Assembly: GCA_947462765.1 (NCBI GenBank)
Contig: CANHQK010000007.1
Span: 1,438 to 65,437, forward strand
Length of the DNA stretch: 64,000 bases
Source: Bdellovibrionales bacterium
GTDB taxonomy: Bacteria; Bdellovibrionota; UBA1018; CAIMNF01
Direction: 5' to 3'
The notes below the pieces were generated by a model. It did no database searches and was not told the origin of the DNA. It was given only the letters and a program-made list of their open reading frames with translations. Below are positions 21,306-37,245 of the stretch, in pieces (position 1 is the stretch's first letter; each line of letters opens with the position of its first letter). Made by a program: the position numbers and the translations under genes.

Positions 21306-22235
21306 ATGCACATGAATGCGTTGATCGAGTACCGCACATTGGTTCTGTATGCCGGCTACGCCTTGATCGGTTTAGCGACCTTCATCCTCGGGAACATGTT
21401 GCTTTCCGAGCAGGAGAACATGAATGCGAGCGAGAATCTCCGTCAACTCGACGGTAAGAAAACCTCGAACGACTTCGTACGGCTCACTCGCCCGTTTTTC
21501 TCGCAATACATCGTCCCGGCGATCCGGAGCAAATCTAGATTCGACGAAGCGAGGCTGAAATACAGGCGTAAAATCATTAGTGGCGGGCTGAAGGATGAAC
21601 TCACTGCCGACGAATTCATCGCGTTCAAGATCATGCTCGTGGTGGTATTTCCCATCGTGGGAGGGTTTGTTCGTGCGCTCGACCTCGCTGACATTCCGAA
21701 CTATGTGATGATCTTCCTCCCCGTCATCGGTTACTTCTATCCTGACTTCTGGGTGAACGGCCGGATCAAGGTCCGTCATGCCCAAGTGATCAAGTCCATG
21801 CCCTTCGTCGTGGATCTGCTCGCCTTGTCTACCGAAGCGGGCCTGGACTTCATCGGAGCGATCCAGAAAGTGGTCGAAAAAGCCGCACCCGGTCCATTCA
21901 TCGATGAGATGGAACAGGTTCTGAAGGAGATCAAGGTCGGGTCATCCCGCTCGGAGGCTCTTCGGGAGATGGCCTTCCGGATCAATCTCCAGGAGGTCAA
22001 TTCTTTTGTCGCGGTCCTCTGTTCGGCCGATCAAATGGGGGCATCGATCGGCAAAGTTCTTCGCCAGCAGTCGGATCAGATCCGGACCCTTCGTTTCGTG
22101 CGAGCCGAGAAGGCGGGTGCGCTTGCCACACAAAAACTGATGTTTCCGACCTTTGCACTGATTCTACCTGCGATTCTCATCATGATGCTGATGCCGTTCG
22201 GACTGCAGGCCTACATGAACGGGGGAGGCGGCTGA
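21306..22235 (+). CDS. Tad/Flp pilus assembly inner-membrane platform protein (TadB/TadC-like, T2SS-F domain)
   Basis: GspF-like domain (FVVDLLALSTEAGLDFIGAIQKV...SRSEALREMA) with TM segments at both ends. Confidence 0.75.
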   Translation: MHMNALIEYRTLVLYAGYALIGLATFILGNMLLSEQENMNASENLRQLDGKKTSNDFVRLTRPFFSQYIVPAIRSKSRFDEARLKYRRKIISGGLKDELTADEFIAFKIMLVVVFPIVGGFVRALDLADIPNYVMIFLPVIGYFYPDFWVNGRIKVRHAQVIKSMPFVVDLLALSTEAGLDFIGAIQKVVEKAAPGPFIDEMEQVLKEIKVGSSRSEALREMAFRINLQEVNSFVAVLCSADQMGASIGKVLRQQSDQIRTLRFVRAEKAGALATQKLMFPTFALILPAILIMMLMPFGLQAYMNGGGG

Positions 22236-22600
22236 TGCGCGTACTCCGGATCGTCCGCCAGCAAGATGGAGCGGTGGTGGCCCACCGGGCCCGCATCGCG
22301 GACGGTTTCTTGAGTCGTTTGAGAGGTCTGATCGGAACCACGAGGTTTACCGAGGGGGAAGGTTTGCTCTTTCCCCGGTGTAACAGCATTCATATGTGGA
22401 TGATGAGCATCCCGATCGATGCTGTTTTTCTGGGTAAGTGTGAGGCGGGTTGGAGAGTGCTCAGTACTCATCCGAGTCTGAAGCCCTGGAAGATCCTTCC
22501 AGTGGGTAATGGTAAAGCGGAGGATGTTCTCGAACTTCCTGTCGGGACCGTCGAGCGCCTCAAGATCCGTCACGGGGAGGTGTTATGCATCGTCTCGTGA
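22235..22600 (+). CDS. DUF192 (COG1430) family protein
   Basis: CNSIHMWMMSIPIDAVFL...VLELPVGT matches the DUF192 core (SIHTFGM.F.IDv.FLd). Overlaps the upstream stop. Confidence 0.55.
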   Translation: MRVLRIVRQQDGAVVAHRARIADGFLSRLRGLIGTTRFTEGEGLLFPRCNSIHMWMMSIPIDAVFLGKCEAGWRVLSTHPSLKPWKILPVGNGKAEDVLELPVGTVERLKIRHGEVLCIVS

Positions 22601-24252
22601 TTGTTGCAGGTCCGAACCGCGGGAGTGCATTCTCTCTGATCGAGGGAGAGAACACGATCGGCCGCCAGATGGATAACCATATCGTGCTCACCTCTTCGAA
22701 AGTATCCAAGCGGCACTGCGCGCTACTGGTTACCACGCAAGAGGTCATTTTGAGAGATGAGGGAAGCACCAACGGGACTTTTGTCAATGGTGCACTCTCC
22801 CGACGGCACACCATGAAACCCGGTGACAAGCTCGGTGTCGGAGAGTTTGTTCTGGAACTCGTACGTTCCGGGGTGCCCGCCCAGGTCTCGACGGGGCAGA
22901 CCGGATCGTTTTCCAATCCGCTCGACAGCGGGATGCTCCCTTCGAATCCGTTTGATCTCTCCGGTGGAGCCGGAGCCCTGGCTCTGCCGGGAGCCGCAAC
23001 CGCTCCGCTGAGATCCGGACCGGCTAACCTTCAGGAAGCCACTTTCGATGATCTCGCTCCGAAACAGGAGCTGCCCGAGGACCTTCCTGGCAAGCTCAAA
23101 TTCCTGTTCGAGGGCAAGATCATGCCCACATTCTATGGCATGCTGATGAAGAGTGAGCTCGGCAATATCCTCGCCGGCTTGCTCGGTATTGCCCTTTTGA
23201 TCTCTGTGTTCGCGTCGGTGATGCCCATGGAGAACATGGCCGAGCAGGGGATCCAGCGGGAAGCCAAAATACGCGGAACCGTCCTGGCTCGCGAGGTAGC
23301 GGATCGTTACGCTCCCCATTTCGTCAACCATACCGAATCACAAATCGATTTTTCGCTCCTCACGCAAGAGGAGAGCATCAAGATCGTCGCGCTCCTCAAC
23401 ATGGACCTCAACATCGTGGCTCCCCAGGCCCGTCTGGGGCAGTTGTTTTCAGTCGGTGGGGAGGCTGCCTTCGCCCGGAAAATGGTCAAGGAATACCGCG
23501 AGGGCCGTGAAAAAGGCGGCGGTATGTTTCTCGATGCCCACACCTATGTGCACATCGAGCCCATCAAGGCAGCGGATCCCCGGACCTACGCCAATGAGGT
23601 GGTCGCCCTTGCGCTCGTATCCATCGATTTTTCGCGCAATATGGTCACCGCTGGAGGCCTCGAAATCGCCTATGGCTCGGCCATCATTTATACGGCCATC
23701 ATCGGCCTGATTTTTTACTTCATCCTGTTGCGTCTGATCCAGAAGCCCTACGAGGTCATGAACGATGACCTCGACCAGGTGTTGAGGGGAGAGATTCCGA
23801 GGGTCACCAAGGAGTTCAAGCTGGGTCATCTCGAGAAGCTCTGGGACAACGTCAATGCCGCTGTTCAGAGGATGGGAAAGGGAGACTCCTCTGTAGAGGA
23901 GGGGACCGTGCTTTGGGATCAGGAATTCGCACCCTGGTTGGCGGTCGCGGAAGCCGGTCAAATGGGACTGATCGGCTTTGACGCCAATCTGATCATGGTG
24001 ACCGTGAACCCGTTTTTTTCGGATTTAAGTGGCATCCGAGGTGATTCGGTGGGGCAGACCCTGTCCCAAGTCGGTGATCAAGCCATGATTTCACTGGTGA
24101 CCGAGATGAAAAGCGGTGCGGAGCGCTCCGGTAGCCGGACCACTTCCGATAAGTTCGAGTTTCAGGGGATCGACTATTCGGTCGTCGCCACCCTGGTCGG
24201 TCCGAAAGACCAGGCCGGGATCGCCCTCCTGTTCAGAAAGAAGGAGTCCTGA
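22585..24252 (+). CDS. FHA-domain membrane protein (N-terminal FHA, Pro/Ala linker, TM helix, extracytoplasmic domain)
   Basis: FHA motif GRQMDNHIVL...SKRHCALL...LRDEGSTNGTFVNG. TM segment GLLGIALLISVFASV. Confidence 0.8.
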   Translation: MHRLVIVAGPNRGSAFSLIEGENTIGRQMDNHIVLTSSKVSKRHCALLVTTQEVILRDEGSTNGTFVNGALSRRHTMKPGDKLGVGEFVLELVRSGVPAQVSTGQTGSFSNPLDSGMLPSNPFDLSGGAGALALPGAATAPLRSGPANLQEATFDDLAPKQELPEDLPGKLKFLFEGKIMPTFYGMLMKSELGNILAGLLGIALLISVFASVMPMENMAEQGIQREAKIRGTVLAREVADRYAPHFVNHTESQIDFSLLTQEESIKIVALLNMDLNIVAPQARLGQLFSVGGEAAFARKMVKEYREGREKGGGMFLDAHTYVHIEPIKAADPRTYANEVVALALVSIDFSRNMVTAGGLEIAYGSAIIYTAIIGLIFYFILLRLIQKPYEVMNDDLDQVLRGEIPRVTKEFKLGHLEKLWDNVNAAVQRMGKGDSSVEEGTVLWDQEFAPWLAVAEAGQMGLIGFDANLIMVTVNPFFSDLSGIRGDSVGQTLSQVGDQAMISLVTEMKSGAERSGSRTTSDKFEFQGIDYSVVATLVGPKDQAGIALLFRKKES

Positions 24253-24255
24253 TCC

Positions 24256-25311
24256 ATGATCCGCGACAAGGTCTTCCGATTCAATAAAGCCGAGGTTCCC
24301 CGCCAAGCGGGCGAATTCGCGCGCTTGCGAGTCGTCAAGGGCCCGGATCTCGGAGCGACCTTCGTGGTGAAGGAGTCCTCGTTCACGGTAGGGCGCGGCG
24401 AGACGGTCGACATCATCCTGGCCGACCCGAAAGCCTCGCGGAGTCATGCTCGGATTGAGTTCACCCACGAGGGGTGGTTGGTGAGCGACCTGGGTTCGGC
24501 AAACGGCGTCTTTTTCTCGGGAGAGTTCGTCCGGAAGTTCAAATTGAAGAGCGGGGACCACTTCACCATAGGTGACAGCGTCCTCGAGTTCCTGATGAGT
24601 CGCGAGTCGGATCGCGCTCTCATGGCCCCTGTCAAAGAGAATCAAGATATCGAGCGTCTTGATGTGGCCCTCGCGCAACAGAAGGTCAGGGTCAAGAACA
24701 TTTCGAAGCCGGTTGCCGGGGTTCAGAAAAAAAAGCAGGAAAAGCGTAGTCCGTTGCTTCTCGTGGTGATCGGTCTCGGTGTCGCGGGCTACCTTTATCC
24801 TGATGAGGCGAGGCCACTCCTTGAGGATTTCGGTCTCGGCATGGTGGCGGATTTTCTTCCGGAAACTCCCAAGTCGAAATCCGGTAAGGCGAAAAAAGCA
24901 GGCAAGGATGGCGAGAAAAAAGATGCCGAGGTCCGCGAGGTCGCCTCATTGGCCCCTTCTGAAGTGTCCCGTGAGGTCGAAAAAACCGCCGACCAACACT
25001 TCGCGCTCGGCTTCAGGGAGTATACGGCTGGAAACTACGTCCGCGCCAAAGAAGCCTTCGAACTCGCCCTTCAGGTCAACCCTCACCATGGCCGCGCAAG
25101 GTATTACCTGATGCATTCCGAGCACGAGAACCGCGAGGAGATTCGGAAGATCATCGAGTCGGCGCGAATCGCCCGGGAATTCGGCAGGACCAGAAAGGCC
25201 ATCGGTCTTTATGAAACAGCCATCCGGCATCTTTATTTCGACAGGGAAAACCCGTTGTATATCGAATGTGAGGCAGCCTTGAAAGAGCTGAAGAAGGTGG
25301 AGTCTCAATGA
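24256..25311 (+). CDS. FHA-domain membrane protein with C-terminal TPR-like region
   Basis: FHA motif GRGETVDIIL...SRSHARIEF...VSDLGSANGVFFSG. TM segment LLLVVIGLGVAGYLY. Lys-rich segment and a helical TPR-like tail. Confidence 0.8.
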   Translation: MIRDKVFRFNKAEVPRQAGEFARLRVVKGPDLGATFVVKESSFTVGRGETVDIILADPKASRSHARIEFTHEGWLVSDLGSANGVFFSGEFVRKFKLKSGDHFTIGDSVLEFLMSRESDRALMAPVKENQDIERLDVALAQQKVRVKNISKPVAGVQKKKQEKRSPLLLVVIGLGVAGYLYPDEARPLLEDFGLGMVADFLPETPKSKSGKAKKAGKDGEKKDAEVREVASLAPSEVSREVEKTADQHFALGFREYTAGNYVRAKEAFELALQVNPHHGRARYYLMHSEHENREEIRKIIESARIAREFGRTRKAIGLYETAIRHLYFDRENPLYIECEAALKELKKVESQ

Positions 25312-27563
25312 GCGGGTCTTTACGTTTGGAAGTATTTCAAAATGGCGAGCTCCTCCGGACCATCCCTTTCGACGGACAGGAGCTCTGGTTCGGGCGTGAC
25401 GAGGATTGCTCAGTCCGGCTGGATGATCGAGCGATTTCGCGTAAGCACGCGCTGATCCGTTCCACATCGAACGGGATTGAATTCGAGAAGAAATCGAAAT
25501 TCGGCATGGTCCGACTGAACGGCAAGGAGACCGATCATGCCCTGATCCAGGGGGGCGAACGTCTGGAGCTCGGCTCCTTTGAGATCCGTTTTGTCAAAGA
25601 GGGTGCCGTTCTTACGAAGCAAGTCCAGGAGGTTCAGACAACAGCTGCGGTGGCGATGACTGAGCCTGCTCTCACCGAGCCGGTGATCACCGAACCGGAA
25701 GCCGAAGAAGCTTCCGCTCCCGCCGAAAACGATCCTTTCGCAACCCCTGCCTCACAAGAGGATGGATTTCAAGCCGAGACGGCGGATCCGTTCCAGACGC
25801 CTGAGAGTGAGCCAGTCTCCTCGGGCGCCACCCGTAGTTTTGATTTCGCCGAAGTCGATCAGGATGGCGCCACCCGCGTCTTTAAGAGTCCCTCGAGGAC
25901 CATGAAGCCGATCCTCGAGTTCGGCGATGGAACGGCCAGTATGGGCTTTTACGAGATCGCCGATCCCGAGATCGCGATTGGTCGATCCCAAAAGTGCCAT
26001 GTGGTGCTCGAAGACAAGCGCTCTTCCCGCAAGCATGCGTTGATCATTGAGCGAGGGAAAAAGTATTTCCTGAAGGACCTCGGCTCGGCCAACGGTACCC
26101 TGCTCAATGGAGAGCGGGTGGATGAGCAGGAGCTACACAGTGGAGATGTCATCCGGATCGGTGACACCCAGTTCACCTTCAAGATGGTCCAAAGCGACTA
26201 TGAGCAGAAAAAAGCGGAGTTTTTCCAGGTTCCTCAAGAGCCCGAGCCCCCCGTGATGGCGGATGGATTTCCAGCTGCAGTTTCGCAGGCGCCTGTAGCT
26301 ACCATGTCTTCTCCGGCCATGGGAGGGATGTTCCCGGCATATTCCCAGGAAGTGTCGCATTCCGGGCCTGAAATTGCCGAGCCCATCGCAACCCCGGACT
26401 TCACCGTTCCCGAGGAGGAGACCCAAAGCATTCTCGGGAAACTCATCCAGCGGTACCGGATGCTCAATACCAAGCAGCAGGTGATCTACGGCCTGGTGGT
26501 TTTGGCGGGGATTTATTTTATTTTTGACGAGCCTCCCCCTGCGGTCAAAGCGGTAGACCCGGTGGCGGAGCAAAAAAAGGCTCAGAAGAAAGCCGAGAAA
26601 AAGCCAGGGGGTGGAGTCACCTACGAGATGTTGACCAAGGACCAGAAGGACTATGTCGATGCCCAGTATGATCTCGCCTTCGAACATTACAAGAATCGGG
26701 ATTATGATAAATCCCTTTTCGAGCTCGACAAGATTTTCAAGATCGTTCAGGAGCACAAGCGGGCGCGTGAAATTGAAACCTATGCCCGGGAGGCCAAGAG
26801 GAGGCTGGAAGCGCAGGAAGAGGACCGGAAGCGGAAGGAGCAGGAGCGCCAGGCCCGCCTCAAACTCGAAGAGCTACTGAGCCGTTCTGGAAGTCTGATG
26901 GACGAGGGTCGATACAAAGAGGCGGAGGAATTGTTCCCAGAAATTGAGATTCTCGAGCCCGAGAACGCGGCGGTATCGGCATGGAGGAAAAAGATCCTCG
27001 AAGAATCGGAGAAAAAGAAAGCCGAAGAGGAGATCCGGCAACGGCTCGGGGCCATCCTTGCCAAAGCCAAGGTAGACGCGGAAACCGCCGAGGGTCTTTT
27101 CAAGGAAAAGCGCTATGTGGATGCACTCGAAATCCTGGATGAGGTGGTCGAGCGTCAGGATCTGGACCCGAAATTCGTCAAGTCGATTGAGGGCAGGATC
27201 AAGGATATCGAGAAAGTCATGGCATCCGAACGCGATCCCCATATCGAAAACGGCAAGCGTCTTGAGGCAGATGGAAAGCTGGGAGAGGCGCATCGTGAAT
27301 ATAAAATGGCGATTTCCATCGATCCATCCGACAGCGAAGGTCCTGCCGGAATCAAGAGGATCCAAGGACAATTGAATTCGATGGCCAAGGCGATCTATTC
27401 TGACGGAGTGATCGCCGAGGGTTTCGGGGATTACGACGTCGCCGAAAAGAAGTACAGAGAGGTCATCGAAACGGTGCCCAGTGATAACTCTTATCACGTC
27501 AAAGCCAAGGCGAGGCTGAAGGTGTTCTCAACCCTGCGCAAGGTGCAGGAGGGCGGACGATGA
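25308..27563 (+). CDS. Tandem-FHA membrane protein with coiled-coil/TPR C-terminus
   Basis: Two FHA domains (GRDEDCSVRL..SRKHALI and GRSQKCHVVL..SRKHALI..DLGSANGTLLNG). TM segment VIYGLVVLAGIYFIF. Long Glu/Lys coiled coil. Start overlaps the previous stop. Confidence 0.8.
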   Translation: MSGSLRLEVFQNGELLRTIPFDGQELWFGRDEDCSVRLDDRAISRKHALIRSTSNGIEFEKKSKFGMVRLNGKETDHALIQGGERLELGSFEIRFVKEGAVLTKQVQEVQTTAAVAMTEPALTEPVITEPEAEEASAPAENDPFATPASQEDGFQAETADPFQTPESEPVSSGATRSFDFAEVDQDGATRVFKSPSRTMKPILEFGDGTASMGFYEIADPEIAIGRSQKCHVVLEDKRSSRKHALIIERGKKYFLKDLGSANGTLLNGERVDEQELHSGDVIRIGDTQFTFKMVQSDYEQKKAEFFQVPQEPEPPVMADGFPAAVSQAPVATMSSPAMGGMFPAYSQEVSHSGPEIAEPIATPDFTVPEEETQSILGKLIQRYRMLNTKQQVIYGLVVLAGIYFIFDEPPPAVKAVDPVAEQKKAQKKAEKKPGGGVTYEMLTKDQKDYVDAQYDLAFEHYKNRDYDKSLFELDKIFKIVQEHKRAREIETYAREAKRRLEAQEEDRKRKEQERQARLKLEELLSRSGSLMDEGRYKEAEELFPEIEILEPENAAVSAWRKKILEESEKKKAEEEIRQRLGAILAKAKVDAETAEGLFKEKRYVDALEILDEVVERQDLDPKFVKSIEGRIKDIEKVMASERDPHIENGKRLEADGKLGEAHREYKMAISIDPSDSEGPAGIKRIQGQLNSMAKAIYSDGVIAEGFGDYDVAEKKYREVIETVPSDNSYHVKAKARLKVFSTLRKVQEGGR

Positions 27564-28288
27564 CAGCTGGAAGCCGTTCGCGGATTCCGCTCAGCTTTGC
27601 CGAGGGGTTTCAGACTCAGGGGGATACGCCTGTACAAGAGGACTACTTCGAGTTGAATCCTGAGAGAGGAATTTACATCTTGGCTGACGGGTTCGGCGGA
27701 TCCCTCGGTGCACGAGCGGCTGAAACCGTGGTGAAATCCGTTCGTCAGTACCTCGAGCATGAAGCAGGGGACCTCGATGCAACCATGCCTTTTGAGCTTC
27801 GTCCCTATTATTCCCTGGCCGGCAACGTGCTGTTCAATGCGGTCGCATTTGCAAACCAGAAAATCATGGAGATGAATCGGGGTCGGAACTGGCAGGACTC
27901 GGGGGGTGCTAGTTTGGTGGCAGGCTACCTCGAAGGCCGACTGCTGTCGGTGGCTCGCGTGGGCGCTTGTCGCTTGAGGCTCAAGCGGGGCGGCCAGGTG
28001 AAAGAGCTGATTCCCGCGAGGAGTCTTCTCAGGCAAACCGATCCGATGAGTGAGGAAGGTCCGGGCGATTCCGTGCCACTGATGAGTTTCGGCACATCCC
28101 GGTCGCTCGAGCCCGAGATGACAGAACTCGAGCTCAGGTCCGGAGATCAAGTGTTCTTTGAGACCGGTGGTGTACGTCAAGCCTGGCGTCAAAAGATCCA
28201 CGCCCTCAATGATCCTCATGGACTCAAAGGGCTTCTGGATTCCCTTGAATCCCCGGGGAATGCGTCGATGATTTGGCTCGGCTTTTAA
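27560..28288 (+). CDS. PP2C-family (PPM) Ser/Thr protein phosphatase
   Basis: Metal-binding motif GIYILADGFGGSLGARAAE. Overlaps the previous stop (ATGA). Confidence 0.8.
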   Translation: MTAGSRSRIPLSFAEGFQTQGDTPVQEDYFELNPERGIYILADGFGGSLGARAAETVVKSVRQYLEHEAGDLDATMPFELRPYYSLAGNVLFNAVAFANQKIMEMNRGRNWQDSGGASLVAGYLEGRLLSVARVGACRLRLKRGGQVKELIPARSLLRQTDPMSEEGPGDSVPLMSFGTSRSLEPEMTELELRSGDQVFFETGGVRQAWRQKIHALNDPHGLKGLLDSLESPGNASMIWLGF

Positions 28289-28309: not shown

Positions 28310-28519
28310 ATGTACACAGGGGGTCTCTTGAGCCAGAAAAGGAAGTCCGGACAAGCAGTCGTCGAATACATCGTGCTCCTGACCATGGTTGTCGGGATCA
28401 TGGTCGCTTTTTTGCGGGCAGTGAACGGTTCTTTCAATAAAGCGGTGCCGAGGATGGGGGGAGCCATCGAGCGGCAATTGCGTACCGGGGCCGCTTCTGC
28501 AGGAGTGTGGAGAAAGTGA
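28310..28519 (+). CDS. Flp-family type IVb prepilin
   Basis: Short leader, then G|QAVVEYIVLLTMVVGIMVA (Glu+5/Tyr+6 after the predicted cleavage). 69 aa. Confidence 0.6.
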   Translation: MYTGGLLSQKRKSGQAVVEYIVLLTMVVGIMVAFLRAVNGSFNKAVPRMGGAIERQLRTGAASAGVWRK

Positions 28520-28794
28520 AGAGGAGCGACCTGGGGCAGGCCGTGGTCGAGTACATCATCCTGCTAGCAATCCTGGTCGGGCTTTACGGAGCGATGATTC
28601 GTCAGCTGGGTGAACGGGAAGTGTTCAAAAAGATGCAAAAGCCCCTGACGAAGGACTTTGCTGCGACTTACCGTTACGGACATCCGAAGGCGAAAGGAAT
28701 GGACGACGGGGGACCTGTCAACATTCCGACGGTTCAGAGCAAAGGCTACGATGACCAGAACTTCAGGATTTTTTACAATCCGACGATAGAGTGA
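28507..28794 (+). CDS. Flp-like prepilin, second copy
   Basis: G|QAVVEYIILLAILVGLYGAM leader/hydrophobic segment. 95 aa. Confidence 0.6.
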   Translation: MEKVKRSDLGQAVVEYIILLAILVGLYGAMIRQLGEREVFKKMQKPLTKDFAATYRYGHPKAKGMDDGGPVNIPTVQSKGYDDQNFRIFYNPTIE

Positions 28795-29336
28795 GTGAGA
28801 TGAAGCGCGAAAACATTCAGAAAAACAAGGAGGGACAGGCGGTGATCGAGTTCATTCTCGGACTCTTGATCGTCATCTCTTTTTTCTTTTTCTATGTCAG
28901 ATTGAGTGCTGTTTTCGCGATCTCGAATTACATCCAGTATGCCACCTTCATGTCCGCGAGAACGCTCGCCTCCTCTGCAAAAGACCAAATGGTCCAGGAG
29001 GAGAACGCCAAACAGGTCCTCCAGTCGATGGTGAGTGGGAAGTTCAAAGGCCTGATCAAGCCCAAGTCTGGAGACGGGTTGTTTGTCGGAGCAGGGAACT
29101 ATTTCAACAGTCTCGGGCCCATTGAAGAGTGGAATCATGGAGCCTCTTATCAGTTTTCAGCCAAACTTTCATTCTATCCTTTCAGTGCGAACGACCAAGC
29201 GGTTCTGTTGGACCTGACCAGTGAGAGCTGGATGCCCCGCGACCGGAGCGAGGATGAGTGTGAGCGTGCCAAATCGAAGATCGAGGCTATGACCGGAGTT
29301 CAGAATGTCAAAGTGGAGTGGGACAATGGATGCTGA
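28791..29336 (+). CDS. TadE-like pseudopilin
   Basis: G|QAVIEFILGLLIVISFFFF class-III signal plus hydrophobic N-terminus. 181 aa. Confidence 0.6.
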   Translation: MSEMKRENIQKNKEGQAVIEFILGLLIVISFFFFYVRLSAVFAISNYIQYATFMSARTLASSAKDQMVQEENAKQVLQSMVSGKFKGLIKPKSGDGLFVGAGNYFNSLGPIEEWNHGASYQFSAKLSFYPFSANDQAVLLDLTSESWMPRDRSEDECERAKSKIEAMTGVQNVKVEWDNGC

Positions 29337-29850
29337 AGAAGGTCAGAGCATTTTGGAAGTCATCCTGTTCCTGCCGTTTTTGTTCATCCTGGTGGGGCTC
29401 TTGATCCGCATGAACACTGGCATCCAGATGGCCATCAATAATGCCCGTTATGCCAGAGCCCAGCTTTTTGTTCTGACCAACAACTCTCCCGAGTATCCGC
29501 GTCTCCAGCTTAGGAACAATCGTCTCGTGAAAAACGCGCACGACATGCTGGTCGTGGGAGTGTCCGATCCTGAGGCGATTGAGGAAGCGGCCTCTGACGG
29601 GGATATGCCGGCGATTCCCCAGGTCCAATCGATTGCCAACAAGAAGGCGCGTGGGAGCAGTGAACGGGGTGAAGTTAAGTCGCGGACGGAAATCCGGATC
29701 CGTGGAACCGCAGCGATCTGCACCCAGAGCAATTCGGTGACCAAGGGTACGCCGATCGACTCGTTGCAGGTCACGGCATTGGCAAACAAACGTTGGCCGT
29801 TCGGAAAAATGGCCTGTCAGTATGACGGGTCCTGGATCGGAGATCAGTGA
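29305..29850 (+). CDS. TadE/TadF-like pseudopilin
   Basis: G|QSILEVILFLPFLFILVGLL class-III signal. 181 aa. Confidence 0.55.
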   Translation: MSKWSGTMDAEEGQSILEVILFLPFLFILVGLLIRMNTGIQMAINNARYARAQLFVLTNNSPEYPRLQLRNNRLVKNAHDMLVVGVSDPEAIEEAASDGDMPAIPQVQSIANKKARGSSERGEVKSRTEIRIRGTAAICTQSNSVTKGTPIDSLQVTALANKRWPFGKMACQYDGSWIGDQ

Positions 29851-30710
29851 TGAATAGCAGGGCGATGACATTATCGTTGGTGATGGCCGGGATTGCGGTA
29901 TTCTTCGTGATGAGTTCCGTGTCGAGCATCGAGCAGAATGCCACCATGAAGTATGGCGACGAAGTGACCGTGCTCGTGGCAAAGCAAGATATCAGGGAAA
30001 TGGGAACGATTCTCGACTCCATGGTCGAGGCGAAATCCGTGCCGAGAAACTTCGTTGAGCCGACCGCGGTCAAGTTCGACGGAAAACTCGATGTCGAGTC
30101 GCCCGAGGGTGCTAGTGCCTATTCGGTTCAGTCCAAGCGGATTGTTGGAAACGTGGCGATTGTCGCAATCAAGAAGGGCGAGCAACTGACCCTGAATAAA
30201 ATCACCGAGCCGAGCATGAGGACCGGGTTGGCGCCCCAGGTGACACCCGGGAAGCGCGCTATTGCTGTTCCGATCGATGAGTCCACCAGTGTGGCCAAGC
30301 TGGTCAAGCCAGGTGACCGTGTAGATGTGATCGCCGTGGTCCAGTCGCCGGGCGTCGGTGGTAGGGAAGTGAAAACTGCCAAGACTGTTTTCCAGGATGT
30401 CGTGATTCTTGCAGTAGGTCGGTCGATTGCGAACAATGTCGCTCGCCGCGTTGATGTCGACATGTCCGGAACCGCCAGGGTCCGCTCCCTCACCGAATAC
30501 GACGGTTATAGTTCCATCACACTAGAGCTCGACCCTGCCCAGGCCCAGTTGGTGGCAGCCATCTATACTGACAATTCCAACCGTCTTATCCTGTCGCTCC
30601 GGAATAATGACGACGCGGACCGGGTGGCCATCAGCGCTCCTTCCAGGGCAACCGATGTGTTGACGGACAGCCAGCGTTTGCCGGCAAGCAACAGTGGAGG
30701 GCTGAAGTAA
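29847..30710 (+). CDS. cpaB: Flp pilus assembly protein CpaB/RcpC (SAF domain)
   Basis: N-terminal TM segment, then SAF-like VTVLVAKQDI...GNVAIVAIKKGEQLT. Confidence 0.75.
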   Translation: MMNSRAMTLSLVMAGIAVFFVMSSVSSIEQNATMKYGDEVTVLVAKQDIREMGTILDSMVEAKSVPRNFVEPTAVKFDGKLDVESPEGASAYSVQSKRIVGNVAIVAIKKGEQLTLNKITEPSMRTGLAPQVTPGKRAIAVPIDESTSVAKLVKPGDRVDVIAVVQSPGVGGREVKTAKTVFQDVVILAVGRSIANNVARRVDVDMSGTARVRSLTEYDGYSSITLELDPAQAQLVAAIYTDNSNRLILSLRNNDDADRVAISAPSRATDVLTDSQRLPASNSGGLK

Positions 30711-30711
30711 C

Positions 30712-32406
30712 ATGCTGAATGCTTCCGTTTGTCTTCTCCTCAGTTTGCTTTCATTCCCGGTCGATGCAATCGCCCAGCAGGAAGCGGTGTCCCCCACACC
30801 GGCTGAGGGCGAAGGTGAGGAAAAAAAAGAACGGAAGCGTCGGCGGGCGCCTGAAGAAAGGGCTGCATATACGCGCTCGAGGTATTCCGCCGACAGGAGT
30901 GAGGCCGAGGCCGACCGACGAGCCTTGCTGCTGACTGCAGGGGTCGACAAAACAGTCGATCTGGAGGCCTCACTGAAGATCACCGGAGACACGAGCCAAA
31001 AAGTCCTGATCGGGAATGTCTCGGTGGTGAAAGTCCTTCCTGTGATTATCGGAGATCGGAAGCAATTGATTTTCAAACCGGAAGGGGTCGGAGAGACCAA
31101 CGTCACGATCCGGGATGATTCCGGCAATGTCAGACTCATCTTCGAGGTGATCGTCGCACAGGCCAACCAGATCCGGAACCTCGAGCGGCTACGAGAGAAT
31201 CTGAAGGAAGTCGAAGGAATCACGATCAATATCGAGGAAAAGAACATCGTGCTCCGCGGGGAGGTGCTCACCACGTCTGATTTTAGCATGGTGAACAATG
31301 AGTTGTCGGGTGATCTCTACGGAAAAGAGGTCATCAACAAGGTGAGAATGTCACCGGTTACACTCAACTTTCTTGCCAAGAGGATTGAGCAGGACATCCA
31401 GGTTTTCGCTCCCACAGTGAGGGCCTCGGTCATCAACGGTAAAATCATTCTCGAAGGCACGGTCGATAGCGAAGGCATCAAACAGCGCGCTTACAACCGA
31501 GCCTACTATTATCTGCCCATGGTCCGATTCAAAGAAAACGTCGGGTCCGATCAGAACGTGATTGAAATGGAGCAGGATAAGAAAACCTTCATTCTCCAGT
31601 CTGATATCACTGTTCAGACCCCCCCTCCAAAAAGAGAGAGCAAGCTCGTCAGGATGACCGTGTATTTCGTCGAGTTGGGCAAGGACTTTTTGAAAGCTTT
31701 CGGTTTCAAGTGGCAGCCCGGTTTCGCATCGGACCCCAGTATCAGCGTCGGGCAGACTGCGACGGGTGGAGTGGGGACCAGCGGAGGAGGGTTCACATTC
31801 AGTGGTACGCTGACGTCACTGTTTCCGACCATCAGCGCCCCGCCCTCTAATGCGTCCTATGGAAGGATCATGAAGTCTGCGACCGTCATTGTGAAGAACC
31901 GTGAGGAGGGAGAAGTCCGTGACCAGGTCCAGGTGCCTACTCAGGCCTTGGGGCAGGGTGGGACTCAGGGTAACGGACCAGCAGTTCAGGTCGGCTTCCA
32001 CATCAAGATGACGCCTTCCATTCTTGAGGGGCAGGATGTCGACGTGAACGTGGATATCGAGCAGAGCAATCAGGTGGGAAAGGGTGTGAACGGCACCCCG
32101 ATCGTGGCCACTCACAAGGTAAAGACCCGGCTCTATCTCAAGTCCGGCGAGACGGCCGCATTGACCGCTGTGAACAAACAGGACGTCGCCACTTCCTTCA
32201 ATCGGGATGACGCCGCTCCCGGAGCATTCCAGCAATCACAAGGGGGGGCCCAGACCAAGCCCCTGTTCAGTTTTCAACGGTCTAAGAACATGTCGAAGTC
32301 GAGGGGACAGTTTGTGATCTTCGTGAACCCGCAAGTGATCGACAACGCCTCAGAGGGCACAGAGGATTTGAAGAAGAATTTCCGTATGACATCGAGCACT
32401 CGCTGA
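30712..32406 (+). CDS. cpaC: Tad secretin CpaC/RcpA
   Basis: Signal peptide, BON-like N-terminal repeats, C-terminal secretin domain ending GQFVIFVNPQVID. Confidence 0.85.
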   Translation: MLNASVCLLLSLLSFPVDAIAQQEAVSPTPAEGEGEEKKERKRRRAPEERAAYTRSRYSADRSEAEADRRALLLTAGVDKTVDLEASLKITGDTSQKVLIGNVSVVKVLPVIIGDRKQLIFKPEGVGETNVTIRDDSGNVRLIFEVIVAQANQIRNLERLRENLKEVEGITINIEEKNIVLRGEVLTTSDFSMVNNELSGDLYGKEVINKVRMSPVTLNFLAKRIEQDIQVFAPTVRASVINGKIILEGTVDSEGIKQRAYNRAYYYLPMVRFKENVGSDQNVIEMEQDKKTFILQSDITVQTPPPKRESKLVRMTVYFVELGKDFLKAFGFKWQPGFASDPSISVGQTATGGVGTSGGGFTFSGTLTSLFPTISAPPSNASYGRIMKSATVIVKNREEGEVRDQVQVPTQALGQGGTQGNGPAVQVGFHIKMTPSILEGQDVDVNVDIEQSNQVGKGVNGTPIVATHKVKTRLYLKSGETAALTAVNKQDVATSFNRDDAAPGAFQQSQGGAQTKPLFSFQRSKNMSKSRGQFVIFVNPQVIDNASEGTEDLKKNFRMTSSTR

Positions 32407-32424: not shown

Positions 32425-34578
32425 ATGGGACACATCATCGCAGTGGTGGGAGGAAAAGGAGGGGTCGGGAAAAGTGTTTTCGCCGCGAACCTCGCGATCG
32501 CCTATCAGATGAACTTCAAGCAGCGTTCCTTGATTCTCGATCTCGACTTCCAGAGTCTCGGTGATCAGAACATCATTCTCGGATTGAATCCCCCGAAGAC
32601 AATCGTGGATGTCAGCAAGGCCCAGGTCGGCACCTGGGATCCGAAGGCCATGACTCCTTTCCTTGCCAATTCACCGCAGGGCTTCAGCTTCATCGGTGCG
32701 CCCCGGGAAGCTGCGCTTGCCAAGGACATCGATCTGGATGGACTCGGAAAGTTTCTCAAAGCCGCAGTGGGTGTTTTTCCGTGGGTGGTGATTGATTGCG
32801 GCAACGGAACAGAACCCCATGCCCTGAAGGCCATGGAGCAGGCGAGTCTGATTTTCGTCGTGACCACTCCGGACGTGATCGTTCTCAACCAGACGCGAAG
32901 GATTCTCGGCAAGGTCCAGGAGCTTCTTTTTCCACAAGAAATGGTACAGGTGGTGGTGAACCGCTATTCACCTAACAATGTGATCAATCCCCAGATGATC
33001 CAGAAGAGCATCAATAAGGCACCCTATTTTGCCATTCCCGAGGATGCAGCCACCTGTGAAGCATCGCTGACCAAGAGTCAGCCTTTCACCATGGTCAATC
33101 CGGGGGCGGCTATTTCGAGAGCTTTCTCGGATTTGGTTCGTCGGATGGATCAGAGCAAAATGCTTGATCAGCTGGCTAAACTGAACAAGCCCACCGGGGT
33201 GGCGCAGAAGGTCGGTGCGGCAGCGGTGGCGCCGACCGATGGAGGCGGAGAAAGCGGAGGCGGTTTGCTGGCCCGCTCAAAGTCGGCTCCCACGGATCCC
33301 TGGACCAACATGAAGCTCAGGATTCACAAGGCACTCATCGATGTCGTGGACATGAAGAAGATGAATGCGGATGTTGCGGATGCCAAGCAACGCGAGGTAT
33401 TGCGCGAAAAAACTCAAAAAGCGATTCTCGATGTACTGGCAAAAGAGGATGTGTCGACCCTTTGTCCGACACGTGAACTCAGAGCCCAGCTTGTAAAGGA
33501 AGTTCTCGACGAAGCCTTGGGGCTCGGACCGCTCGAGGATCTTCTCGCGGATGAAACGGTGACTGAGATCATGGTCAATGCTCGGGACCAGATCTACGTG
33601 GAACAAGGCGGAAAGCCTGGCTTATCCAAAACAACTTTTTCGAGTGAGCAGCAGATGATGAATGTGATCGAGCGGATCGTCACGCCGCTCGGCAGACGGG
33701 TCGATGAAAAGACACCGTATGTGGATGCCCGACTTGCGGATGGCTCGCGGGTTCACGTGATCATCCCTCCGCTAGCGCTCAGGGGCCCCACCATCACAAT
33801 CCGAAAATTTCCCAAGAAAAGAATCGTGTCTGCGGACTTGGTGAAGTTCGGTTCGATGACACAGGAGATCGCGGATTTTCTGCGGGCTTGCGTCGAAGCC
33901 AAACTGAATATCGTGGTTTCGGGCGGAACGGGATCCGGTAAAACCACTTTGCTCAATGTTTTATCCAACTTCATTCCAGCGACCGAGCGGATCATCACCG
34001 TCGAGGATGCAGCCGAACTCCAGCTCGGGCAGGAGCACGTGGTCCGGCTCGAGACCCGTCCCAAAAACATCGAGGGCGAGGGTGAGGTATCCATCAGGGA
34101 TCTGATCAAGTGTTGTCTCCGGATGCGGCCTGACCGGATTGTGGTCGGGGAGTGTCGGGGTGGCGAAGCCCTCGACATGTTGCAGGCTATGAACACGGGT
34201 CACTCCGGCTCGTTGACCACGGTGCACGCCAACAATCCCAGGGAGTGTATCGGACGTCTTGAAACGCTGGTGATGATGGCCGGGATGGGACTTCCCCTCA
34301 AGGCCATCCGGGAAACCGTGGCCAGTGCGGTCAATCTGATCATTCAGCAGTCGCGTCTGACGGATGGTTCGCGGAAGGTGACCTATGTATCGGAGGTGCT
34401 CGGGATGCAGGGCGAAACCGTTACCATCCAGGACATCTTCATCTACAAGCAGGAAGGCTTGGACAAGAACCGTAAGATTATTGGCAGGTTCGTGCCGACT
34501 GGTTTCATTCCTAAATTCGTCGAAGAAATGGAAGCAAAAGGCATGAAAATCTCACGGGGACTTTTCGCGGTCAAATAA
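32425..34578 (+). CDS. Fused CpaE/TadZ-like MinD-type ATPase domain plus CpaF/TadA secretion ATPase
   Basis: N-terminal deviant Walker A AVVGGKGGVGKS (ParA/MinD/CpaE type). C-terminal TadA ATPase (VSGGTGSGKTTLLNVL, Asp/His boxes). 717 aa. Confidence 0.85.
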   Translation: MGHIIAVVGGKGGVGKSVFAANLAIAYQMNFKQRSLILDLDFQSLGDQNIILGLNPPKTIVDVSKAQVGTWDPKAMTPFLANSPQGFSFIGAPREAALAKDIDLDGLGKFLKAAVGVFPWVVIDCGNGTEPHALKAMEQASLIFVVTTPDVIVLNQTRRILGKVQELLFPQEMVQVVVNRYSPNNVINPQMIQKSINKAPYFAIPEDAATCEASLTKSQPFTMVNPGAAISRAFSDLVRRMDQSKMLDQLAKLNKPTGVAQKVGAAAVAPTDGGGESGGGLLARSKSAPTDPWTNMKLRIHKALIDVVDMKKMNADVADAKQREVLREKTQKAILDVLAKEDVSTLCPTRELRAQLVKEVLDEALGLGPLEDLLADETVTEIMVNARDQIYVEQGGKPGLSKTTFSSEQQMMNVIERIVTPLGRRVDEKTPYVDARLADGSRVHVIIPPLALRGPTITIRKFPKKRIVSADLVKFGSMTQEIADFLRACVEAKLNIVVSGGTGSGKTTLLNVLSNFIPATERIITVEDAAELQLGQEHVVRLETRPKNIEGEGEVSIRDLIKCCLRMRPDRIVVGECRGGEALDMLQAMNTGHSGSLTTVHANNPRECIGRLETLVMMAGMGLPLKAIRETVASAVNLIIQQSRLTDGSRKVTYVSEVLGMQGETVTIQDIFIYKQEGLDKNRKIIGRFVPTGFIPKFVEEMEAKGMKISRGLFAVK

Positions 34579-34596: not shown

Positions 34597-35472
34597 ATGA
34601 GTTTCGCGATTCCTCACTGGCTGCTCGGCCTCGTCGTGTTTGTCTCGGCGTTGCTGGTTGCTTATCAGTTTTCAGGACGGATTCTCGACTGGGTGAGATT
34701 CCACTCGATCGGAACGCGGGACTACATCGCCGACAAGCTCAAGCTGATGATGATCGATCTTCCACTCGAGAAGATCCTCATGTACCAGGTCGGGTTTTCA
34801 TTCGGTCTTGCCGGGCTCGTGTTTCTGGCTTGTTTACCGAATTTAAAGGCTGGCGGGGCATTGGGCGCGGTTGTCGCTGTTGCTGCTTGGTTTCTCCCCA
34901 AGCCGATCGTGAATGTCCTGTATCAGAAGCGCGTGGACCGTTTTGTCGAACAAATGGTGGATGGACTCGGTCTCATGTCGAACGGGATGCGATCGGGTCT
35001 CTCGGTCTCCCAAGCGATGGGTCTGGTGGCCCAGGAAATGCCCGATCCCATCAAATCCGAGTTCGAGTTGGTGCTCAATCAGAACAAGCTCGGTTCCTCT
35101 CTTGAATCGGCCTTCATCGATCTTTCGAAACGCGTGGTGGCGGACGAGGTCGAGATGTTCGTGACTTCCGTGGTCATTCTCAAGGAGACCGGGGGAAATT
35201 TGGCGGAAACCTTCGACACCATCACCACCTTGATCCGTGAAAGGATCAAAGTCGAGAACAAGATCAAGGCCATGACGGCATCCGCCTTTTGGCAAGGGAT
35301 GATCCTACTCGGAGTACCGCCATTCATGGGATTGACGCTTTCCCAGTCCGATCCCGAACTCATGAGGCCGATGTTCGAGACCTGGCTTGGCTGGGTCGGC
35401 CTCTCTACCGTGGCAATTTTGATGTTGGTAGCTTATTTTGTAATCAAGAAGGTGACAAAAATCGATGTCTGA
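34597..35472 (+). CDS. Tad/Flp pilus assembly platform protein (TadB/TadC-like)
   Basis: T2SS-F domain with 3-4 TM helices. Confidence 0.75.
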   Translation: MSFAIPHWLLGLVVFVSALLVAYQFSGRILDWVRFHSIGTRDYIADKLKLMMIDLPLEKILMYQVGFSFGLAGLVFLACLPNLKAGGALGAVVAVAAWFLPKPIVNVLYQKRVDRFVEQMVDGLGLMSNGMRSGLSVSQAMGLVAQEMPDPIKSEFELVLNQNKLGSSLESAFIDLSKRVVADEVEMFVTSVVILKETGGNLAETFDTITTLIRERIKVENKIKAMTASAFWQGMILLGVPPFMGLTLSQSDPELMRPMFETWLGWVGLSTVAILMLVAYFVIKKVTKIDV

Positions 35473-37174
35473 GGTGAGAAGAATGACCAGAGTCTTGATC
35501 TTGTTGGGCGCATTGTTGTCGGTATCCAGTGCTTTTGCACGGGCTGATGTGAGTCTTCGGAACGGTAATTTTTTTGTTTCTTTGAGAGACATTTCTTTTC
35601 CGGGAGGGATCGAGCCCAAGATTGAACGGGTCTACAATTCAAAGTCCGACTTCCACGGGATGTTCGGTTACAGCTGGGGAACTGAGTACGAAACGCGCCT
35701 TGGCTTCGATCCTGACGGCAGTCTGTTATTGACCGAGTACGGAGGGGGCGCGAATATCCGTTTCGTTCCAAAGACCTTCACGGCCAAAGATGTTGAGGAT
35801 GGGATCAAGAGTGTGGTCGAGTCCGCACAGAAGGCGGGGATGGTCACCAGTGCGAAGGGCCTGGAAGACTATCGTAAACGTCTGAGAGAGAGTTCTGAAT
35901 TCCGAGCCAAGCAATACGCGATTTTTGTCAATAAGGGGAGTCTCCAGAGAAAAGTGATCGCGGAGAATACCCAGTTCATTTCCACTGACTATCAGTATCA
36001 GTATCTGACCCGCGTGAAGGGCGGATATACCCGGGTGATGGAAGCGGGCATGATTCAGAAATTCAACGAAGCCGGACGCTTGGTGCAGATCATGGATCGG
36101 AACCGGAACTTCGTCAATTTCTCATACGATTCGAATGGGAAGATCGCCCAGATGATCGACAACCAGAATCGCAAGATGGTTTTCTCCTACAATCAGTTCG
36201 GCCTGGTCGAGCGGATCGTGGGTGAGAGCGGAAAGAAAGCCGAATTCAAGTATTCAAAAGAGGGATTTCTGGTCTACAGCAAAGATGATGCAGGCGTGGA
36301 GAATACGTTTAAGTACACCGCCGACCAGTACCGCAATCTTTCCGAGATCGGTTATCCCAATGATCGGAATGCCAAGGGCGAACCCAAGCGGATGGTGGTC
36401 GGTTATTATGGTCCGGAGAAGAACTCCAGCGTGAAGTCGGTGGTGAATCTGGATGGTACAGTGAACGAATATGAGTACGAACTCGCGGGGAAGACCCCGG
36501 GTTATTATTCGGTCCGTGTGGTGTTGAAAGACGCCTCCGGAGCGAAACTCAATGATTCGAAGTACGAGTATTTTTACAAAACGAAGCCCAGTGGCGAGGA
36601 GTTCACTTCCCGGATGGTGACCACCGTGGACGGCGAGAAAACCGAGACCGTCTACGACGAGAAGCTCGGCTATCCCTTGAAGATCACAGCCAACGGAAAA
36701 ACCACGACCATGGAATATGACTTGAAGGGCCGGATGACCCGTAAGGTCACCCCTCTTCACACCACCACGCTCACTTATGATCCGGTGGTGGGAAAGGTGT
36801 CCAAGGTTGTCAAAAAAGTGGCGAGCGGAACCGTGATCTGGAGCGAATTTGAATACGATAAAACCACGGGGAACCTCTTGGTGGCCCGGAATAGCGATAA
36901 AAAACTGGTGAAGCTGATCTATGATTCACAGGGGCGGATCAGCGCTCTCGTGGACCAGGCGGGCCGACAGCTCACCTTCAAGTACAACGAGCTCTCCAAG
37001 CCGGTCGAAATCCGGGATGCCAAGCTCGGAACGGTGCGATTCACCTATAAAAACAGTGGCGAAGTCGACAAGGTGGACAGCAACGGGGGTGCGGGGGTGT
37101 CGGTGGAGGTGATGCGCGCATTGCAAAGCCTGATCGATATCACCGCTCCAGCTGGTGTCACCATGTCGATTTGA
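35465..37174 (+). CDS. Secreted YD-repeat (RHS-repeat) protein
   Basis: Signal peptide MTRVLILLGALLSVSSAFA. Many YD-type repeats (e.g. GRLVQIMDRNRNFVNFSYDSNGKIAQMID, KMVFSYNQFGLVERIVGESGKK, TTTMEYDLKGRMTRKV). Start overlaps the upstream platform gene. Confidence 0.7.
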   Translation: MSEVRRMTRVLILLGALLSVSSAFARADVSLRNGNFFVSLRDISFPGGIEPKIERVYNSKSDFHGMFGYSWGTEYETRLGFDPDGSLLLTEYGGGANIRFVPKTFTAKDVEDGIKSVVESAQKAGMVTSAKGLEDYRKRLRESSEFRAKQYAIFVNKGSLQRKVIAENTQFISTDYQYQYLTRVKGGYTRVMEAGMIQKFNEAGRLVQIMDRNRNFVNFSYDSNGKIAQMIDNQNRKMVFSYNQFGLVERIVGESGKKAEFKYSKEGFLVYSKDDAGVENTFKYTADQYRNLSEIGYPNDRNAKGEPKRMVVGYYGPEKNSSVKSVVNLDGTVNEYEYELAGKTPGYYSVRVVLKDASGAKLNDSKYEYFYKTKPSGEEFTSRMVTTVDGEKTETVYDEKLGYPLKITANGKTTTMEYDLKGRMTRKVTPLHTTTLTYDPVVGKVSKVVKKVASGTVIWSEFEYDKTTGNLLVARNSDKKLVKLIYDSQGRISALVDQAGRQLTFKYNELSKPVEIRDAKLGTVRFTYKNSGEVDKVDSNGGAGVSVEVMRALQSLIDITAPAGVTMSI

Positions 37175-37194: not shown

Positions 37195-37223
37195 TTGACC
37201 TCCGTTCTTGCGGCTGGTTAAAC
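37195..37223 (+). promoter_or_regulatory. Candidate sigma-70-type promoter (TTGACC-17 bp-TTAAAC)
   Basis: Hexamers with 17-bp spacing, about 20 nt upstream of the small peptide gene's RBS and ATG. Confidence 0.3.
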
Positions 37224-37245
37224 TGTGTGGAGAGGTAAGGTTTTC

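Follow-up and report, generated by a model that had tools for sequence, protein, structure and literature searches.

The hit locus of Bdellovibrio has been known since 1992 as a site of mutation to prey-free growth, and Bd0109 and Bd0108 are two of its products. Bd0109 is a YD/RHS-repeat protein with a Sec leader (AFA/LV by SignalP) that is periplasmic in E. coli; its gene is co-transcribed with bd0110-bd0111, the protein binds Bd0108, and its deletion was unsuccessful (Capeness et al. 2013, PMC3818213). Bd0108 is a secreted, intrinsically disordered protein of 101 amino acids (aa) with a disulfide-forming CxxC motif (C56/C59), the N-terminal half of which binds Bd0109 with a low affinity (Kd ~45 µM) (Prehna et al. 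2014, PMC4267844). Mutants of bd0108 in B. bacteriovorus display altered piliation (PMC3818213, PMC4267844), and bd0109-bd0113 have been counted as a syntenic core of the TAD operon (Avidan et al. 2017, PMC5430801). The stretch of DNA analysed here, termed the window, comprises 64,000 nucleotides of a Bdellovibrionales bacterium genome (contig CANHQK010000007.1, positions 1,438 to 65,437; assembly GCA_947462765.1). On its forward strand, as the last large gene of a Kil-like Tad/Flp operon, it contains a gene coding for a toxin-less YD-repeat protein (hereafter the YD gene and the YD protein). Judged from its sequence, this gene is the orthologue of bd0109 in an uncultured freshwater Bdellovibrio-like predator. 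Its product is probably a Sec-exported, toxin-less mini-Rhs cup, paired with a disordered partner and tuning a Kil-type Tad/Flp pilus.

Architecture and orthology of the YD protein

The first-pass annotation had described the product as a short, secreted YD/RHS-repeat protein devoid of an RHS core and of a toxin, a description with which the family matches and the motif search agree. Pfam and NCBIfam return only families of the RHS_repeat and DUF6531 types, namely RHS_repeat (Pfam, E=8.7e-17), YD_repeat_2x (TIGR/NCBIfam, E=1.2e-15) and DUF6531 (Pfam PF20148, E=1.5e-12), and no membership of TadD, RcpB or TadG. With the NCBIfam RHS_core model, only the repeats match, at 41.9 bits for a cut-off of 2000. 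The DPxG[LIVM] motif does not occur anywhere in the protein, which therefore lacks the Rhs aspartyl-protease core, and no toxin domain was found in it with the domain libraries. The leader is a classical Sec signal peptide (MTRVLILLGALLSVSSAFA/RA); a class III prepilin leader (G/xxxxE with a hydrophobic N-terminal helix) is absent, and the protein harbors neither a lipobox nor a cysteine.

The AlphaFold2 model of the YD protein, built with a 66-sequence alignment, is confident (pLDDT 87.6, pTM 0.80), with low pLDDT at residues 11-20, in the signal peptide region (residues are numbered on the 563-aa version starting at ATG 35483). It predicts an N-terminal plug domain, a helical insert, the repeat spiral and a C-terminal helix extended by a short tail (Table 1). 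Many invariant residues are located in the DUF6531 domain (residues 22-96), and others lie near the C-terminus (L550, I553, P556, G558 and V559). The tail following the amphipathic helix conforms to a family-wide pattern, P-A-[GT]-[VA]-x-[LM]-x-[ILF]-COOH, which is kept even at 32% overall identity. An end-to-end architecture of 540-600 aa is shared by ~145 separate 50%-identity clusters. The free hydrophobic C-terminal tail could be a docking motif, either by strand addition or as a PDZ-type ligand.

The sole Foldseek matches of the model are Rhs effectors including RhsA, Rhs cores, teneurins and TcB/TcC, the BC cocoons of Tc toxins, with E-values down to 2.6e-25. The global template modelling (TM) scores of these matches are low (0.2-0.42). 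Strong repeat-fold matches together with low global scores indicate that the protein has the repeat fold in common with these shells, but not the overall shape of a complete cocoon. No solved structure was found for any member of the Bd0109-type YD family. The complete Rhs barrel of Tse5 comprises 40 hairpins, a DUF6531 N-plug and a C-terminal plug with a DPXG-x19-DPXG signature (González-Magaña et al. 2023, PMC10684867). By comparison, the modelled YD protein is a cut-down Rhs shell, made of the N-plug and about 40% of the 40 hairpins. Its C-terminal helix stands, in the model, where Rhs proteins carry the protease plug and the toxin, and a protein folded as predicted could thus neither self-cleave nor carry a toxin.

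The best fold and sequence matches are found among the Rhs/YD polymorphic toxins, such as RhsA (7q97) and Tse5 (8cp6), effectors of type VI secretion systems (T6SS), and the Rhs cores (8qjb-d), through the YD beta-hairpin spiral and the DUF6531 plug. The window protein differs from them by its smaller number of hairpins (~16 against ~40), by the lack of a DPXG-x18/19-DPXG plug and of a toxin or immunity gene, by its Sec signal peptide outside any PAAR, VgrG or T6SS context, and by global TM-scores of 0.2-0.4. Whereas the C-terminal toxin of Rhs proteins is variable, the C-terminus of the YD protein is the helix and tail conserved in the whole family. The BC cocoon of Tc toxins (YenB/YenC2, 4igl; TcdB2-TccC3) and the teneurin shells possess the same repeat fold, and have in common with the present case the notion that a YD sheet could surround or bind a polypeptide chain that is not folded (PMC4267844). 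These shells are, however, closed and several-fold larger, and their cargo is covalent before autoproteolysis, whereas in the window the candidate “cargo” is encoded by a gene of its own and has its own signal peptide. A PapG/pilin-like N-terminal fold, suggested by Capeness et al. for Bd0109, is superseded by the assignment to DUF6531, the Rhs N-plug.

From the expression primers of Capeness et al., the ends of Bd0109 can be read as LVDMKNANYS (mature N-terminus) and PATAELYL (C-terminus) (PMC3818213). A profile search covering 1.84 billion cluster representatives matched Bd0109-like representatives end to end, with termini nearly identical to these peptides, and a second homologue search retrieved named B. 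bacteriovorus proteins containing both primer-derived peptides exactly (P0374, UniRef Q68VD7 “rhs family”). The single-protein scan of genome contigs reached only relatives of at least 61% identity, B. bacteriovorus being reached via the peptides and via the representative and second homologue searches. The window protein aligns collinearly with P0374 over residues 1-557 against 1-545 (32% identity, 52% positives, E=1e-87). Among the 93 loci gathered for comparison (L001-L093, 80 of them from a metagenome scan), L011-L013 match the HD100 primers inexactly and hence belong to other strains or species; the identification of Bd0109 rests on P0374.

The B. bacteriovorus chromosome among these loci (L013, CP168971.1) encodes, in this order, two Flp proteins, three small open reading frames (ORFs), CpaB, a secretin, a TadZ::TadA fusion (738 aa), TadB and a YD protein of 550 aa, after which comes a 96-aa secreted ORF with a CPEC motif, corresponding to Bd0108. 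The window follows the gene order of the hit locus (bd0119–bd0108) and has, at the bd0108 position, a small ORF for a predicted secreted, cysteine-containing and disordered protein. The putative orthology with Bd0109 is based on the full-length collinear alignment and on this identical B. bacteriovorus gene order. The two proteins further resemble each other in their length (551 aa for Bd0109 against 563 in the window), the Sec leader ending in AFA, the N-terminal domain, the ~13-16 YD repeats, the C-terminal helix and tail, and the absence of protease and toxin; the Bd0109 tail, PATAELYL, fits the same pattern as that of the window protein. Both genes come directly after tadB (bd0110), ending a Flp/Tad operon. 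A small ORF for a secreted CxxC protein comes next, that of the window being a candidate analogue of Bd0108. They differ in that their products share only 32% identity, the window belonging to another lineage with a GC content of ~55-57%, and in that the B. bacteriovorus locus lacks the FHA, PP2C and TadC genes that the window operon has directly upstream. The nearest relatives of the window protein (92-93% identity) are from freshwater metagenome-assembled genomes (MAGs), one of which is labelled Bdellovibrio sp. ZAP7.

Linkage to the tad genes and the putative small secreted partner

Reading 13 loci one gene at a time showed TadZ::TadA and TadB/C ahead of the YD gene in every case, whereas what lies farther downstream varies between lineages; the linkage is therefore to the tad genes. 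It was scored over the loci with at least 1 kb of upstream sequence, binned by identity to the YD protein of the window or of B. bacteriovorus. TadB/C lies directly upstream of the YD gene in 16/16 loci at 60% identity or above, in 7/7 at 46-59%, in 35/36 at 40-45% and in 4/15 below 40%, which amounts to 58/59 loci at 40% identity or above and to 62/74 overall. The tad linkage pointed out by the first-pass annotation thus extends to its relatives: among close and moderately distant ones the linkage is strict, and it is absent only from a distant sister branch. That reading withstands both of its own tests, since RHS_repeat matches are present and no close relative is without neighbouring tad genes. 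Two loci harbor split clusters: TadB/C and the YD protein are found without TadZ::TadA, secretin and CpaB upstream in L007 (CAIKYX010000050.1), and only TadZ::TadA, TadB/C, the YD protein and the small ORF in L011 (CAYMBJ010000005.1). The minimal unit retained is therefore TadB/C, the YD protein and the small ORF.

The small ORF located downstream of the YD gene in the window had been named as a possible immunity-like gene, an assignment that has to be abandoned. Its product has its own signal peptide (…THSALA/AANAEN), a cysteine cluster with a CxxC motif (CKTC in CCKTC) and a low-complexity, acidic, Gly/Ser-rich tail; it is predicted to be disordered, as AlphaFold2 run on the single sequence of the 70-aa product yields a pLDDT of 51. 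A cytoplasmic immunity protein is ruled out by this predicted secretion, by the disorder and by the cysteine motif. The ORF is conserved in L001-L004 and L014, and its ratio of non-synonymous to synonymous substitutions (dN/dS, 0.07-0.11) indicates purifying selection.

Similar ORFs accompany the YD gene in most tad-linked loci. Where enough downstream sequence is available, a small ORF with a signal peptide starts within 330 nt of the YD gene in 56/61 of these loci; in 50/61, its mature part is also composed of at least 70% A/G/S/T/P/K/E/D/Q/N, as compared to 2.2% of 1480 random control positions. Cysteine is present in 51/53 unique small-ORF sequences. Although the sequences from different loci cannot be aligned with one another, these features suggest that a Bd0108-like partner, unrecognisable in its sequence, is near-universal in tad-linked loci. 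The window ORF is a predicted analogue of Bd0108 by position, composition and CxxC motif only: its 70 aa, with a CCKTC motif, bear no recognisable resemblance to the 101 aa of Bd0108, with their CPEC-type Cys56/59 pair.

The gene bd0108 has been reported as restricted to a Bdellovibrio subgroup, and Bdellovibrio sp. ZAP7 is said to lack it (PMC12428579; PMC11870529); a 2025 preprint reports the same for several other genomes. In the MAG labelled sp. ZAP7 (L003), a secreted ORF with a CCKTC motif is nevertheless found exactly at the bd0108 position (L003:11783-11998), as is the case in the window (70-71 aa). The likeliest reading is therefore that the partner has been retained and has diverged past recognition. 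The cysteine motif is internal in the small proteins of the window and of B. bacteriovorus. In five other loci (L028, L044, L050, L049 and L012), the sole cysteine of the small partner is located at the predicted cleavage site, in a lipobox-like sequence (…VAFG/C, …TMA/C, …AFA/C), and the partner may be a lipoprotein there.

Reading frame, surrounding operon and sister branch

The gene is real, and the longest ORF described by the first-pass annotation (35465-37174, 569 aa), with its signal peptide and its position directly after a T2SSF (TadB/C) gene, is present as stated. Its start is probably not at ATG 35465. This codon falls within the conserved end of TadB/C, ATC GAT GTx TGA (I-D-V-stop); in L001-L004, third-base changes that are silent in TadB/C alter the putative second codon of the YD gene (S/F/C), and in L009 the equivalent of ATG 35465 meets a stop after 5 codons. 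Homologues are called as 563-aa proteins with the N-terminus MTRVLILL. ATG 35483 is preceded by GAGGTGA and lies 10 nt past the TadB/C stop. The codon changes, the L009 stop and the homologue starts thus make ATG 35483 the probable true start, and the 8-nt overlap with the last tad gene, as well as the translational coupling proposed on its basis, is probably an artefact of the longest ORF. The remaining gap of 10 nt is still a tight operon packing; in other lineages, TadB/C and the YD gene are 20-110 nt apart. The dN/dS of the YD gene is ~0.03 against L001 and L003, indicating strong purifying selection. Rfam has no match at the gathering threshold between 20000 and 42000, and a promoter and terminator scan between 27400 and 38000 yielded nothing exceeding chance, a promoter-like site ahead of the small ORF (37195-37224) also being within chance expectation.

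Table 1. Features of the window around the YD gene and segments of its product
Feature	Coordinates	Strand	Basis
Second T2SSF protein, TadC-like	21306-22235	+	Pfam T2SSF
Three FHA or FHA-TPR proteins	22585-27563	+	Pfam FHA, Yop-YscD_cpl, TPR
PP2C-like protein	27560-28288	+	PP2C_2 match on the orthologue in a JGI contig
Two Flp-like pilins	28310-28519, 28507-28794	+	G-Q-A-V-V/I-E-Y/F-I prepilin motifs in the 28310..29850 translations
Two TadE-like pseudopilins	28791-29336, 29305-29850	+	prepilin motifs in the 28310..29850 translations
CpaB/RcpC, Bd0113 equivalent	29847..30710	+	Pfam RcpC, TIGR03177
Secretin (CpaC/RcpA-like), Bd0112 equivalent	30712..32406	+	Pfam Secretin, BON, T2SS-T3SS_pil_N
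TadZ(CpaE)::TadA(CpaF) fusion ATPase, Bd0111 equivalent	32425..34578	+	Pfam CbiA/ParA 3-236, T2SSE 365-647; TIGR03819
TadB/C platform protein (T2SSF), Bd0110 equivalent	34597..35472	+	Pfam T2SSF E=8.5e-18
Bd0109-type toxin-less YD protein gene	35483..37174	+	563 aa from the likely ATG 35483
Sec-type signal peptide, MTRVLILLGALLSVSSAFA/RA/DV	35483..35545	+	residues 1-21; read from the sequence
N-terminal beta domain, DUF6531, Rhs-shell N-terminal plug	35546..35770	+	PF20148; model strands at residues 30-96
Three-helix insert, plug to repeats	35783..35932	+	residues 101-150; AlphaFold2, pLDDT ~85-87
YD-repeat beta-spiral	35972..37081	+	residues 164-533; 33 strands, ~16 hairpins; model
C-terminal amphipathic helix and tail P-A-G-V-T-M-S-I-COOH	37091..37171	+	model helix 537-557
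Small secreted, low-complexity protein with Cys motif (CCKTC), 70 aa	37246..37458	+	ORF and ribosome-binding site

The operon of which the YD gene is the last large member is listed in Table 1; 3' of the 70-aa ORF follow the housekeeping genes lipA, E2, E3 and lipB. Orthologues of the pilin and TadE-like ORFs carry Flp1_like and TadE Pfam matches in L009, L010 and L012. The block 21306-28288 and the pilin genes form one consolidated Kil-like cluster, while B. bacteriovorus (L013) has no FHA genes at this place and its tadC (Bd0470) is located elsewhere. A prepilin peptidase (Peptidase_A24/TadV) is missing between the Flp and TadE-like genes of the window, and is present in the 45%-identity lineages (L009:2361-2933 and the JGI contig); its absence agrees with a remark in the literature that Bdellovibrio genomes lack TadV. 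The fusion of TadZ and TadA, joining a ParA/MinD domain to T2SSE (714-768 aa), is found in every related locus, including L009-L013 and Bd0111.

Myxococcus xanthus has a Tad-like predation pilus, Kil (Seef et al. 2021, PMC8460266; PMC12075869), which resembles the system of the window in its Flp pilins, CpaB, secretin, TadA-type ATPase, platform proteins and multiple FHA proteins. The enrichment in FHA domains is a hallmark of Kil systems (PMC8460266). The window ATPase differs by its fusion to TadZ, the Myxococcus KilF being described as fused to an FHA domain instead (PMC8460266). Seef et al. identified Bd0110, Bd0111 and Bd0113 as the orthologues of KilG, KilF and KilB, and gave no Kil counterpart for Bd0109 or Bd0108 (PMC8460266). 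The YD protein and its small partner look therefore like a Bdellovibrionota-specific addition to a Kil-type machine.

The sister branch (39-45% identity or less) has kept the architecture of a signal peptide, DUF6531 and a short YD-repeat region over ~560 aa, as well as the same N-terminal motif, and its genes are not adjacent to tad genes. It is represented by L073, L080, L082, L087/L088 and L075, and also by L068, L070 and L078, from metagenomes. The neighbours of the YD gene in this branch code for WD40 proteins of 1500-1600 aa (with overlapping stop and start), a CHAT protease, TPR and TIR proteins, or a protein with an FGE-sulfatase domain. Such neighbours recall conflict or signalling systems. 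In the sister-branch loci, the YD gene is not followed by a small secreted ORF.

Proposed role of the pair and competing explanations

The role proposed here for the Bd0109 orthologue, that of one half of a pair tuning the pilus, would proceed as follows. Made from the same operon as the Kil-type Tad/Flp pilus, the YD protein would be exported by the Sec pathway to the periplasm or cell envelope, where its cup would form a binding chamber for the disordered partner. Whether the pair is bound or free would tune how the pilus is extruded and retracted and, via pilus dynamics, the pair would influence the decision of the predator between attack and growth. Prehna et al. also hypothesised a chamber, formed by Bd0109 and encapsulating the disordered Bd0108 (PMC4267844), and the “shell-like component” suggested by the first-pass annotation corresponds to this published view of Bd0109 encapsulating or binding its partner. 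What was observed, and serves as the starting point, is how the protein is built, its orthology, where its gene stands in the operon, the conservation of both genes as a pair and the purifying selection on them; we infer the cup geometry, the location in the window organism, the regulatory logic and the mechanism of a chamber for a disordered ligand.

Several points weigh against this proposal. Identity to Bd0109 is limited to 32%, and the function would be carried over by orthology and synteny. By BLASTP, the window small ORF has no similarity to the genuine Bd0108. The model published for Bd0109 is speculative in its turn and deals with type IVa (PilA) pili, while the machine indicated by synteny is Tad/Flp. 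A purely regulatory role does not explain the lethality of the bd0109 deletion. Finally, the cup of the modelled YD protein may be filled by its helices, with no binding chamber left.

Three other explanations have to be weighed. The YD protein could be a substrate that the Tad/Kil machine secretes, or a surface adhesin of that machine, passing the secretin or riding the pilus non-covalently, with its YD sheet binding a carbohydrate or protein of the prey envelope in the manner of teneurin or WapA-type YD proteins. The signal peptide, the operon membership and the YD fold, common to the extracellular teneurins, are in line with such a role, as would be the hypervariability of the partner ORF if it acted at the prey interface; moreover, no fluorescent fusion was visible in Bdellovibrio, and a location outside the cell was left open by the authors (PMC3818213). 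We nevertheless consider it unlikely. Tad pili are not known for secreting folded cargo, and the YD protein is devoid of a prepilin leader; its classical Sec leader also speaks against the tip adhesin, in the pilin sense, that the earlier annotation had put forward. Its dN/dS of 0.03 reflects a conservation unlike that of typical prey- or host-contact adhesins, Bd0109 is undeletable even in prey-independent growth, where prey adhesion is irrelevant (PMC3818213), and the predicted pilus tip complexes of Bdellovibrio consist of minor pilins (PMC12075869).

An envelope structural or assembly factor replacing the TadD pilotin or RcpB, a beta-rich periplasmic protein whose C-terminal tail would dock on the secretin or on CpaB, and whose loss would mislocalise the secretin with toxic effects, seems to us improbable as well. 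Kil-type systems lack TadD, RcpB and TadG (PMC8460266), the position at the operon end beside the platform gene is invariant, and the C-terminal helix and the tail with its hydrophobic last residue show strong conservation. Secretin toxicity would also explain why bd0109 is undeletable whereas the flp genes are deletable (PMC3818213, PMC5430801). Against this, the YD protein is not homologous to any known pilotin or Rcp protein and contains neither a lipobox nor a cysteine, the sister branch of the same architecture has no secretin nearby, and the disordered partner and the measured binding between Bd0108 and Bd0109 (PMC4267844) are left unexplained. As for a decayed Rhs toxin, a remnant stripped of its core and toxin and standing beside the tad genes by accident, the shortness of the protein and the lack of core, toxin and immunity gene are all that recommend it. 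It is effectively refuted, and hardly credible, given the uniform 540-600 aa architecture of the ~145 clusters, the conserved N- and C-termini, the strong purifying selection, and the tad linkage and synteny kept across lineages down to 32% identity.

A broader version of the favoured pilus-tuning proposal appears possible, although we would not call it probable. The mini-Rhs cup and a hypervariable, secreted, cysteine-containing disordered protein would constitute a conserved two-gene module of essentially all Kil-type Tad pili in Bdellovibrionota, Bd0108 being diverged and not missing. The rapid evolution of the partner as compared to the slow evolution of the YD protein would suggest that it serves recognition or an arms race where predator and prey meet, and the sister branch would have been recruited, in other bacteria, beside WD40, CHAT or TIR genes of the conflict type.

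The window gene is thus a real and conserved gene, and the rediscovery of a kind already described with Bd0109 and the hit locus. The earlier reading of a toxin-less, tad-linked, shell-like YD-repeat protein stands, without the overlap and the immunity-like ORF, and it had not recognised the hit-locus arrangement. The strict tad linkage across ~60 diverse loci, the near-universal, cryptic Bd0108-like partner, the assignment of the DUF6531 plug and the sister branch located elsewhere are what the comparison adds. The pair is not peculiar to B. bacteriovorus, the YD gene being deeply conserved as the one that ends the predatory Tad/Kil operon, and many natural variants of the pair are now available for structural and partner-swap work. 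The pair deserves to be studied as part of the Tad/Kil machine, and not only as a regulator of type IVa pili.

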